Shown here: positions 14,459-15,121 of the stretch, one piece after another
Position numbering within the stretch: position 1 is the first letter of the stretch
Layout of the letters: each line of letters begins with the position of its first letter
IMG/VR virus record: IMGVR_UViG_3300008050_000286
Length of the DNA stretch: 25,150 bases
From: a virus
Reading direction: 5' to 3' (one strand)
Program-made: the position numbers and the translations under genes
The notes under the pieces: generated by a model
The model's database searches: none
Seen by the model: only the letters and a program-made list of their open reading frames with translations
What the model was told of the DNA's origin: nothing

Positions 14459-14488
14459 GTGTAAACAGCCCTGCAGTGTGGGTATAAT
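14459..14488 (+). promoter_or_regulatory. Candidate promoter for the suppressor/atypical tRNA block (perfect TATAAT at 14483-14488, TG two nt upstream, weak -35 TGTAAA)
   Basis: Read directly. Followed by a ~150-nt leader containing the palindrome GACTCAT-A-ATGAGTC (14613-14627), a possible RNase III-type processing site. Confidence 0.45.
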
Positions 14489-14649
14489 ACTAACATCAAG
14501 AGGACGAGATGACCACTTACACTTAGGTACACCAAGACACGCGCCAGAACGGATCTGGTCTGTCTACCAGTGTAAAGTACATCTCCACAACACCCTCAAG
14601 GGCATTCCTTCGGACTCATAATGAGTCTGTTGGGGCCCTTGAATCATTT

Positions 14650-14726
14650 GGCGCGGTAGCTCATCGGCAGAGCATCCGAGACTTGTTCTCGGAAGGTAGG
14701 TGGGTCAGTACCACCCCGCGCCACCA
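14650..14726 (+). tRNA. Atypical tRNA-like gene A: perfect acceptor + CCA, T-loop GTCAGTA, 6-bp anticodon stem with loop ACTTGTT (C33; formal anticodon TTG)
   Basis: Acceptor GGCGCGG/CCGCGCC, TA-GCTC D-arm, T-arm GGTGG-GTCAGTA-CCACC. Confidence 0.4.
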
Positions 14727-14730
14727 TTTC

Positions 14731-14806
14731 GCGGAAGTAGCTCAGGTAGAAGAGCAGCTGATCTCAGATCAGTGTGTCGGTGGTGCAAATCCATCCTTCC
14801 GCACCA
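14731..14806 (+). tRNA. tRNA with anticodon TCA (would read UGA; opal-suppressor-like), non-canonical T-loop TGCAAAT and C33, CCA encoded
   Basis: Acceptor GCGGAAG/CTTCCGC, D-arm GCTC-AGGTAGAA-GAGC, anticodon stem GCTGA/TCAGT with loop TCTCAGA (anticodon at 14764-14766), T-arm GGTGG-TGCAAAT-CCATC, A + CCA. Confidence 0.5.
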
Positions 14807-14810
14807 TTTT

Positions 14811-14960
14811 CCGCCGGGATCCTGCTGCTGACGAGGTCGACGGACCTCTTGCATTAGCTGTCTGGGACTTAGCAGCGTTCTGTGACAACAGTAGTGAAAA
14901 GTGCGCGCTACGCACTACTGGAAGAACAGTCTGGGGGTTCGAATCCTCCCCGGCGGACCA
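14811..14960 (+). other. 147-nt tRNA-like element: tRNA acceptor/T-arm/CCA frame enclosing ~75 nt of extra structured sequence (intron-containing tRNA or tRNA-derived RNA)
   Basis: 5' CCGCCGG pairs perfectly with 3' CCGGCGG-A-CCA; adjacent T-arm GGGGG-TTCGAAT-CCTCC. Interior has stems CAGTAGTG/CACTACTG and GTGCG/CGCAC. Confidence 0.35.
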
Positions 14961-14965
14961 TTATC

Positions 14966-15040
14966 GGGAGCGTAGTTCAGTGGCAGAACCGCTGACTCTA
15001 AATCAGCTCGTCGAGGGTTCGATTCCCTCCGCTCCCACCA
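14966..15040 (+). tRNA. Amber suppressor tRNA, anticodon CTA (reads UAG), otherwise canonical, CCA encoded
   Basis: Acceptor GGGAGCG/CGCTCCC, D-arm GTTC-AGTGGCAG-AAC, anticodon stem GCTGA/TCAGC with loop CTCTAAA (CTA at 14998-15000), T-arm GAGGG-TTCGATT-CCCTC, A + CCA. Confidence 0.75.
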
Positions 15041-15045
15041 TTTTC

Positions 15046-15121
15046 CCGTCGGTAGCTCAGATAGTAGAGCAGCCTGCTTAACAGCAGGAAGGTCGGAGAT
15101 GCAAGCACTTCCCGACGGACC
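15046..15121 (+). tRNA. Atypical tRNA-like gene E: perfect acceptor + CCA, T-loop TGCAAGC, anticodon region CCTGC-TTAACA-GCAGG (6-nt loop containing TTA/TAA)
   Basis: Acceptor CCGTCGG/CCGACGG, TA-GCTC D-arm, A + CCA. Confidence 0.4.

Follow-up and report, generated by a model that had tools for sequence, protein, structure and literature searches.

We analyzed a 25,150-nt stretch of viral DNA (IMG/VR record IMGVR_UViG_3300008050_000286; hereafter the window) in which five tRNA-like genes (A to E) precede a gene for the peptidyl-tRNA hydrolase PTH2 that contains an in-frame TAG near its start. The array follows a promoter-like site and a structured leader, and a further tRNA gene (F) lies downstream of PTH2 (Table 1). 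The block (14440-15160) is 100% identical in the NCBI (59-kb contig), ENA and JGI assemblies. Since it recurs in three independent assemblies, the block is no assembly artifact. Proteins encoded in the window find their best matches (30-46% identity) in 460-735-kb 'uncultured phage' genomes (Al-Shayeb et al. 2020), and the source of the window is a huge phage.

Table 1. Features of the tRNA-like array and its surroundings, and PTH2 starts in other loci. ORF, open reading frame.
Feature	Coordinates	Strand	Description
RF1-like release factor gene	12954..13632	+	Lacks domain 1; predicted prfB-type +1 frameshift CUU UGA C (13062-13068)
Promoter-like site	14459..14488	+	GTGTAAACA...TATAAT; precedes operon; conserved in L013, L024 and L022
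Structured leader RNA	14489..14649	+	Shine-Dalgarno element 14498-14504; mini-ORF 14509-14526
Frame continuing from leader UAG	14527..15081	+	184 codons open through A-D; ends at TAA in the E loop
tRNA-like A	14650..14726	+	Elbow intact (G18G19, U55C56), 7-bp anticodon stem, pentaloop CUUGU, T-loop GUCAGUA, ACCA
tRNA-like B	14731..14806	+	UCA within UCUCAGA, C33, 7-bp stem and triloop, T-loop UGCAAAU
C, 150-nt tRNA-like RNA	14811..14960	+	Acceptor stem, canonical T arm, ACCA; D and anticodon arms replaced
D, canonical amber-suppressor tRNA (decoding predicted)	14966..15040	+	Loop CUCUAAA, U33, A37
tRNA-like E	15046..15122	+	GG-less D-loop, T-loop UGCAAGC, 53:61 A:A, loop of 6 nt (UUAACA) or 8 nt
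PTH2 peptidyl-tRNA hydrolase gene	15154..15510	+	In-frame TAG is codon 3 (15160-15162)
Second promoter-like site and tRNA F	16131..16160 and 16171..16243	+	CUA; CCA not encoded
PTH2 start, L024			ATG TCT TAG TAC GAA ATC
PTH2 start, L022			ATG ATG TCC TAG (then GAA)
PTH2 start, L027 (LR756501, 735 kb)			ATG TCG TAG ATT
PTH2 start, L028 (LR756500, 462 kb)			ATG AAG TAG ATT
PTH2 start, L029 (201-kb contig)			ATG AAT CTA TAG
PTH2 start, L030 (208-kb contig)			ATG AGT CAT CTA TAG
PTH2 start, L025 (442-kb contig)			ATG TCG TAG
PTH2 start, L035 (72-kb contig)			ATG TTT TAG ATG

An in-frame amber codon at the start of PTH2

The only upstream ATG of the window's PTH2 gene (15154) has a typical ribosome-binding site and is followed in frame by GCT TAG. 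Read through the TAG, the gene scores 35.4 bits against Pfam accession PF01981 (profile positions 2-102, cut-off 23 bits), vs 30.3 bits when read from GTG 15196, the first canonical start after the TAG. The Pfam match reaches upstream to ~15184, and the GTG is a GTA in the related locus L024. More than 100 PTH2 homologs start M-x-x-Q-I-K-E-G-D-K-L-Y. These comparisons indicate that conservation at the PTH2 N-terminus begins ahead of any canonical start.

We identified nine huge-phage lineages, the window included, that combine an ATG-x(1-3 codons)-TAG start of PTH2 with a CUA tRNA within 2.5 kb. Beyond the window, L024 and L022, the start was found in distant, AT-rich huge phages (L025, L027-L030 and L035). 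PTH2 identity across these lineages is 44-68%. In alignments of L025, L029 and L030, the TAG position corresponds to Gln in TAG-less homologs. Because the loci and 100 kb of LR756501 have no central in-frame TAG in long ORFs, the PTH2 UAG appears to be a specific programmed feature and not part of general recoding. The preliminary description of the window had hypothesized that genes elsewhere in the genome are recoded. A sense-context UAG was found in PTH2, and a second UAG ends the leader mini-ORF; genome-wide recoding is unsupported.

We also observed a UUA (ochre-type) tRNA (6822-6895) 500 nt downstream of the PTH2 gene in L023, a locus that served as a TAG-less control. PTH2 and suppressor-type tRNAs may thus be linked more generally. 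Within 1-2 kb upstream of the amber-gated PTH2 genes of L030 and L035 lies a tmRNA gene (3973-4329 and 2889-3243, respectively), with Thg1 and tRNA-Thr nearby.

Two CUA tRNAs

ARAGORN detects 41 tRNA genes in the window, all on the plus strand. Two of these, D and F, carry a CUA anticodon and score 68.7 and 64 bits with the Rfam tRNA model RF00005 (gathering score 29 bits), with CUA at positions 34-36 in both. D has a 7-nt loop, CUCUAAA, with U33 and A37, and F has the same loop. Their earlier designation as a canonical amber suppressor and a second CUA suppressor agrees with these features. D shows 12 changes in L024, with three compensatory pairs and CUA kept. Conserved copies of F in L008-L010, L014 and L022 show compensatory changes around an unaltered loop. 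An alignment of 11 CUA tRNAs from seven loci (67% mean identity) shows no change in the CUA itself. These alignments identify D and F as genuine CUA tRNAs maintained by purifying selection, with UAG decoding and charging predicted.

Promoter, leader and an open frame across the array

The TATAAT at 14483-14488 is part of a GTGTAAA-N17-TAnnnT element. This element occurs only twice in the window, at 14459 and, before tRNA F, at 16131, with 0.05 copies expected. The leader (14490-14649) folds with a z score of -5.85, and its structure is conserved, with double-sided changes at 10 pairs across four lineages. The perfect TATAAT and palindromic leader of the preliminary description are both present. 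The leader mini-ORF reads ATG ACC ACT TAC ACT TAG. A Shine-Dalgarno element followed by a mini-ORF of 4-5 codons that ends in TAG occurs in all four lineages (window, L013, L024 and L022).

A third promoter-like core (TAGCGTGTAAGT, 16833-16845) precedes the RlaP gene and follows the TAG stop of the ORF at 16602-16835. The stop of the PLD gene (16127-16137) has an identical TAG-CGTGTAAA junction.

Continued from the leader TAG, the reading frame remains open over 184 of 209 codons in the window, 200 of 210 in L024 and all 341 in L022. The window has one stop in this frame vs 3-12 in each of the five other frames; across the window, L024 and L022, the other frames hold 3-14 stops each. Dinucleotide shuffles reached the observed open run in 2/5000 (window), 5/5000 (L024) and 0/5000 (L022) cases, and the spacing between the leader TAG and A is a multiple of three in every case. 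Protein-level conservation was not found in this frame over the array. A genuine protein product was considered and rejected: synonymous/nonsynonymous changes number 19/36 vs 14/43 in other frames, and the product resembles a translated tRNA. We infer that what keeps this frame open is selection for the passage of ribosomes after read-through and not for an encoded protein.

tRNA-like genes with closed or rebuilt anticodon arms

The array had been described as five CCA-ending tRNA-like genes, and five are present: ARAGORN calls A, B (as UCA) and D, and Rfam adds E. Rfam scores for B, A and E are 55.3, 41.0 and 33.9 bits, all above the gathering score. The loops reported earlier (GTCAGTA and ACTTGTT in A, TCTCAGA and TGCAAAT in B, TTAACA and TGCAAGC in E) were read correctly. 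The 36 other tRNAs of the window nearly all have U33, a purine at position 37 and GUUCGA-type T-loops, the exceptions being Val-gac (C33), Asp (U37) and Met-cat4. The oddities are therefore concentrated in one promoter-preceded unit. A to F match the window's other tRNAs at 68-76% identity at best.

A keeps all 23 base pairs among its copies, with two compensatory pairs within the 7-bp anticodon stem, and G-C and A-U close this stem in all copies. Three lineages have CUUGU as the pentaloop; L022 has CCCGA. A role of A as a Gln reader is unsupported, given its wrong loop size and a loop sequence that changes between relatives. A covariance model of A found no further members in 376 kb of huge-phage loci.

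B shows five compensatory pairs. Positions 32:38 covary (U-A vs C-G), and 33:37 is C-G in all copies. The triloop is UCA in the window and L024 and UCG in L022, the most distant relative. B had been put forward as an opal (UCA) suppressor. Because B has C33 and covariation indicates a 7-bp stem with a triloop, this assignment is unlikely. The B homolog of L022 (723-828) has a 35-nt D-loop insertion, keeps all four stems and has a canonical T-loop.

C has a 7-bp acceptor stem and the T arm GGGGG-UUCGAAU-CCUCC. Its interior of ~110 nt folds (z = -4.0) into a long hairpin and a branched domain that includes a hairpin capped by GACG. Compensatory changes between the window and L024 fall in the acceptor stem (4:69) and the long hairpin. 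C was originally presented as a 147-nt tRNA frame with ~75 nt inserted; it measures 150 nt, and the interior consists of two large arms and is no simple insert. Neither ARAGORN nor Rfam matched C to any tRNA, tmRNA or Rfam model, and C is therefore tRNA-like in its acceptor and T arm only. We rejected C as a tmRNA, given this lack of matches and a G-C, not G3:U70, at position 3:70, and as a hammerhead, for which Rfam and ARAGORN gave no support. L022 carries two 130-140-nt acceptor-plus-T-arm frames that are analogous to C.

E varies in loop sequence and length between relatives and keeps a UGC(A/G)A T-loop and a GG-less D-loop. Its L024 copy has an acceptor stem rebuilt with compensation, the loop GACUAC and the T-loop UGCGAUC, with D-loop and T-loop types retained. 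A role as a specific codon reader is unsupported, given the abnormal loop size and the changing loop.

What the conserved structured RNAs A, B, C and E retain of a tRNA (acceptor stem, T arm and CCA) is what end processing and 3'-end chemistry require; the anticodon arm of each is either closed or rebuilt. The anatomy of A, B and C argues against ordinary decoding.

Outside the array, two CAU tRNAs (18036-18113 and 8694-8771) are unusual in their D arms (GGACUGGAG...). With its UGCGAAU T-loop and U37, the tRNA at 18036 additionally resembles a B/E-type elbow.

Related loci

GenBank phages contained no near-identical or distantly similar block and gave generic tRNA matches only. No copy resembling A or B was found in IMG/VR, and single-protein scans of IMG/VR with PTH2 and PLD returned no syntenic relative. 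Flanking or spurious ORFs led to the related loci L024, L013, L022 and L008-L010. The block of L024 is complete and ordered as in the window. L013 retains the promoter, the leader and A, with a remnant of PTH2 behind them. The block is absent from L008-L010, where the initial 20 codons of window ORF 13684 are joined to the final 80 of PTH2.

L022, whose PTH2 is 64% identical to that of the window, contains a larger syntenic block. Its array includes A and B homologs, a tRNA-like gene with a 9-nt loop, the two long C-like frames, two CUA tRNAs and one weak tRNA-like gene, followed by PTH2. Downstream of PTH2 lie an intrinsic terminator and then another promoter with a CUA tRNA. Because the terminator directly follows PTH2, the array and PTH2 form one unit in L022.

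Nucleotide identity between the window and L024 is 64-76% for flanking genes, 80% for the leader, 97% for A (also 97% in L013), 96% for B, 90.5% for C, 84% for D and 75% for E. The high identity and the compensatory pairs thus mark A, B and C as constrained structured RNAs.

Stop codon usage and the release factor gene

As previously noted, all three stop codons end genes in the window: TAA ends 11, TGA 8 and TAG 7 of 26 genes. No back-up stops lie close behind the TAG-terminated genes. Among annotated window genes, PTH2 alone contains an in-frame TAG, and the one in-frame TGA of the window belongs to the prfB-type frameshift site of the release factor gene. Treating TAG as sense did not lengthen the long ORFs of the window and L005 (~28 kb in total). 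Two candidates for recoding were rejected: a frame across TAG TAG (6835-7566) without a coding look, and TAG-rich frames at 100-150 kb of LR756501 that are off-frames of GC-rich repeat genes. Stop recoding under codes 15 and 4, raised in the preliminary description, was tested on the window; since TAG still ends 7 of the 26 genes and lies in frame in PTH2 only, genome-wide recoding is not shown.

The release factor gene carries the frameshift site GGAGG-TCC-CTT TGA C (13050-13068), with the Shine-Dalgarno-like element 3 nt upstream of the shift. The site is conserved in L008 and L013. The fused product aligns continuously with RF1 (132 bits vs 77 bits for RF2) and has PPS in place of PVT. The gene thus has the elements of a prfB-type programmed +1 frameshift, the shift itself being predicted. 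The upstream ORF ends in a double stop and is a gene of its own, and an N-terminal extension of the release factor by read-through of TAG and TGA was therefore rejected. No tRNAs were found near the release factor homologs of LR745206, LR756504 and LR756502.

Neighboring genes

Window genes around the block encode a major vault protein (MVP)-shoulder protein, a GIY-YIG endonuclease, a methyltransferase, the short release factor, PTH2 and a PLD-like protein. Others encode an RlaP nucleotidyltransferase, a metallophosphoesterase, Thg1, an HD_4 hydrolase, a NUDIX protein and DUF444 (YeaH), with SpoVR and PrkA following. The setting of the block is a tRNA/RNA repair island with an RF1-like factor. 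End-repair genes are dense between 16890 and 22911 (RlaP, metallophosphoesterase, Thg1, RelA/SpoT-type HD_4 hydrolase, a cytidylyltransferase-cupin protein and NUDIX). This content is consistent with a defense against toxins acting on tRNA ends by modification or cleavage.

A 7-nt tandem duplication (AGCCATT, 19263-19269) is present in the window and L006 and not in L005. It splits a 118-aa ORF (19086-19442) into 61 and 78 aa and represents a strain-level frameshift polymorphism. At 9206-10036, a GIY-YIG/NUMOD3 homing-endonuclease ORF (9263-10036) shares sequence with two tRNA genes: it overlaps the 3' end of a tRNA-Lys(CUU), whose T arm is aberrant, and covers a tRNA-Gly(UCC), whose D arm is odd. 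This arrangement looks like endonuclease invasion of a tRNA array. The 896-aa protein encoded at 4139-6829 combines major-vault-protein shoulder and repeat domains (Pfam accession PF11978, 4.7e-27) and has no PHROG match.

Proposed amber read-through and its alternatives

We propose that the promoter, leader, five tRNA-like genes and PTH2 form an accessory huge-phage operon in which programmed amber read-through couples a suppressor tRNA to the hydrolase, a reading to which we assign a probability of about 0.55. The phage CUA tRNAs (D and F), probably charged with Gln by the host, would read through the UAG in PTH2, and PTH2 output would scale with suppressor activity. PTH2 would in turn clear peptidyl-tRNAs and stalled complexes to which tRNA damage and amber read-through give rise. 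Ribosomes that read through the leader UAG would travel over nascent pre-tRNAs, providing feedback on folding and processing, and would arrive next to the PTH2 start. As the weakest step, A, B, C and E are most likely non-decoding tRNA mimics that act as decoys or cofactors in the surrounding tRNA repair and conflict functions.

A more specific version of this proposal, which we put forward only tentatively, is a dedicated amber read-through circuit in huge phages. The CUA tRNA would license PTH2 through a UAG at codon 3-5, transit from leader to array would make the operon self-sensing in this clade, and the tRNA-like genes would represent a new mimic class with 7-bp anticodon stems and 3-5-nt loops.

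Several points weigh against programmed read-through. TAG is directly followed by ATG in L035 and by ATT in four lineages, so that termination and reinitiation after a minigene are possible. TAG ends 27% of window genes, and strong suppression would therefore extend many proteins. The phage's own RF1-like factor should compete at UAG. The most likely role of A, B, C and E is drawn from their anatomy and context. The window and L024 are not independent in the open-frame statistic. Finally, the block is dispensable, being missing in L008-L010 and reduced to A and a PTH2 remnant in L013; these losses suggest that the unit is accessory.

Suppressor tRNAs could instead belong to genome-wide recoding, in which late genes elsewhere use TAG (code 15), perhaps also TGA (code 4), as sense, with the block and release factor forming a code-change module. 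Two CUA tRNAs, a release factor gene and a sense-context TAG do lie inside 3 kb, and recoded phages keep standard-code early genes and carry suppressor tRNA and release factor genes together (bioRxiv 10.1101/2021.08.26.457843). The stop usage of the window nevertheless makes recoding unlikely, as TAG terminates genes without back-up stops, lies in frame in PTH2 only and yields no longer ORFs when read as sense. Moreover, the encoded release factor is RF1-like and would terminate at UAG, B is no credible UGA reader, the sole in-frame TGA is the frameshift site, and LR756501, with the same amber-gated PTH2, looks standard-code over 100 kb. Programmed amber read-through thus appears to be the better reading of these sequences.

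The PTH2 starts also bear on a model of reinitiation, in which ATG-x-TAG is a 2-4-codon upstream ORF, PTH2 starts at a nearby AUG, AUU or AUC, and the CUA tRNAs are linked by shared tRNA biology only. Very short ORFs provoke peptidyl-tRNA drop-off and so generate the substrate of Pth, as in the lambda bar minigenes. The ATG TTT TAG ATG start of L035, the ATT directly after TAG in L025, L027, L028 and L029, and a Shine-Dalgarno element positioned for the first ATG would all fit such a model. However, no start codon is present at this site in L030 (TAG GTT), the window and L024 (TAG TAC) or L022 (TAG GAA). The stop is TAG in 9/9 lineages, including 23-31% GC genomes where TAA dominates; it is always in frame, with no indel up to the domain, and a CUA tRNA is adjacent in every case. 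We consider reinitiation improbable. If the locus were decaying, A, B, C and E would represent pseudo-tRNAs on the way to degeneration, and the TAG would inactivate a PTH2 gene that is being lost. PTH2 is indeed truncated or fused in L013 and L008, where the block is missing, and E is conserved no better than its flanks. Yet A, B and C are far better conserved than their neighbors and carry compensatory changes, the TAG holds its place across nine lineages with such divergent PTH2 proteins (44-68% identity), and the remaining PTH2 is intact and above the Pfam threshold. Decay, largely refuted by these conservation data, is thus a highly improbable explanation.

Comparison with known systems

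Minigenes offer one precedent for the proposed operon. Like the lambda bar minigenes, the PTH2 start comprises a 2-4-codon ORF functionally linked to peptidyl-tRNA hydrolase. Unlike in lambda, this mini-ORF is in frame and contiguous with the hydrolase gene, always ends in UAG and always has a CUA tRNA close by. A second precedent is the autoregulatory +1 frameshift of prfB (RF2), in which an early stop in a translation-factor gene senses termination capacity. Here, too, a premature stop would gate a termination/rescue factor, and the neighboring release factor gene has the same CUU UGA C site. The gate in PTH2 would be UAG read-through rather than a frameshift, and the frameshifted factor is RF1-like and lacks domain 1.

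Non-decoding relatives of tRNA include the non-proteinogenic tRNA-Gly of Staphylococcus, the YrlA/Y-RNA tRNA mimics and the tRNA-like domain of tmRNA. A, B, C and E similarly keep the acceptor and T-arm modules and alter elbow or anticodon parts. They differ from these relatives in having anticodon arms lengthened to 7 bp with 3-5-nt loops. Unlike tmRNA, C has no G3:U70, no tag ORF was found, and ARAGORN made no tmRNA call. Unlike YrlA, the array has no Ro-binding stem; the YrlA model matches D and E together with 26.9 bits vs a gathering score of 69.

Jumbo phages and cluster C mycobacteriophages encode PTH2, Thg1, nucleotidyltransferases and phosphoesterases alongside large tRNA sets, which have been taken to serve in ribosome rescue and tRNA repair (Iyer et al. 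2021, PMC7824862). The term 'suppressor' was not found in the text of that study. Our literature searches showed that suppressor tRNAs, release factors and PTH2 have already been described in large phages. They returned no account of an amber codon in PTH2, of a PTH2-suppressor tRNA linkage or of non-decoding tRNA-like genes, and no counterpart for conserved tRNA look-alikes with closed anticodon arms or for a stop-free frame laid over a tRNA array. Because PTH2 was called truncated in every assembly examined, the amber codon also flags a systematic annotation error.

A further comparison is with phage code-change modules, in which a suppressor tRNA, a release factor and an aminoacyl-tRNA synthetase lie beside recoded late genes (Borges et al., bioRxiv 10.1101/2021.08.26.457843). 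The locus described here resembles these modules in its clustered CUA tRNAs and release factor gene, in the apparent use of UAG as a post-transcriptional gate and in the probable reading of TAG as Gln. It differs in that the gated genes seen here are PTH2 and the leader ORF only, TAG is still a common terminator, the window has no aminoacyl-tRNA synthetase, and the module also occurs in standard-code-looking genomes. In addition, its release factor is RF1-like, whereas TAG-recoded Lak and Agate phages encode RF2 (bioRxiv 10.1101/2021.08.26.457843).

A suppressor tRNA in a phage is usually taken as a sign that the whole genome is recoded. Our observations point to a narrower use, in which one programmed UAG gates a ribosome-rescue enzyme across very different, apparently standard-code huge phages. 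If correct, this would explain the presence of suppressor tRNAs in some standard-code phages, and it offers a concrete test case of one gene, one codon and one tRNA.

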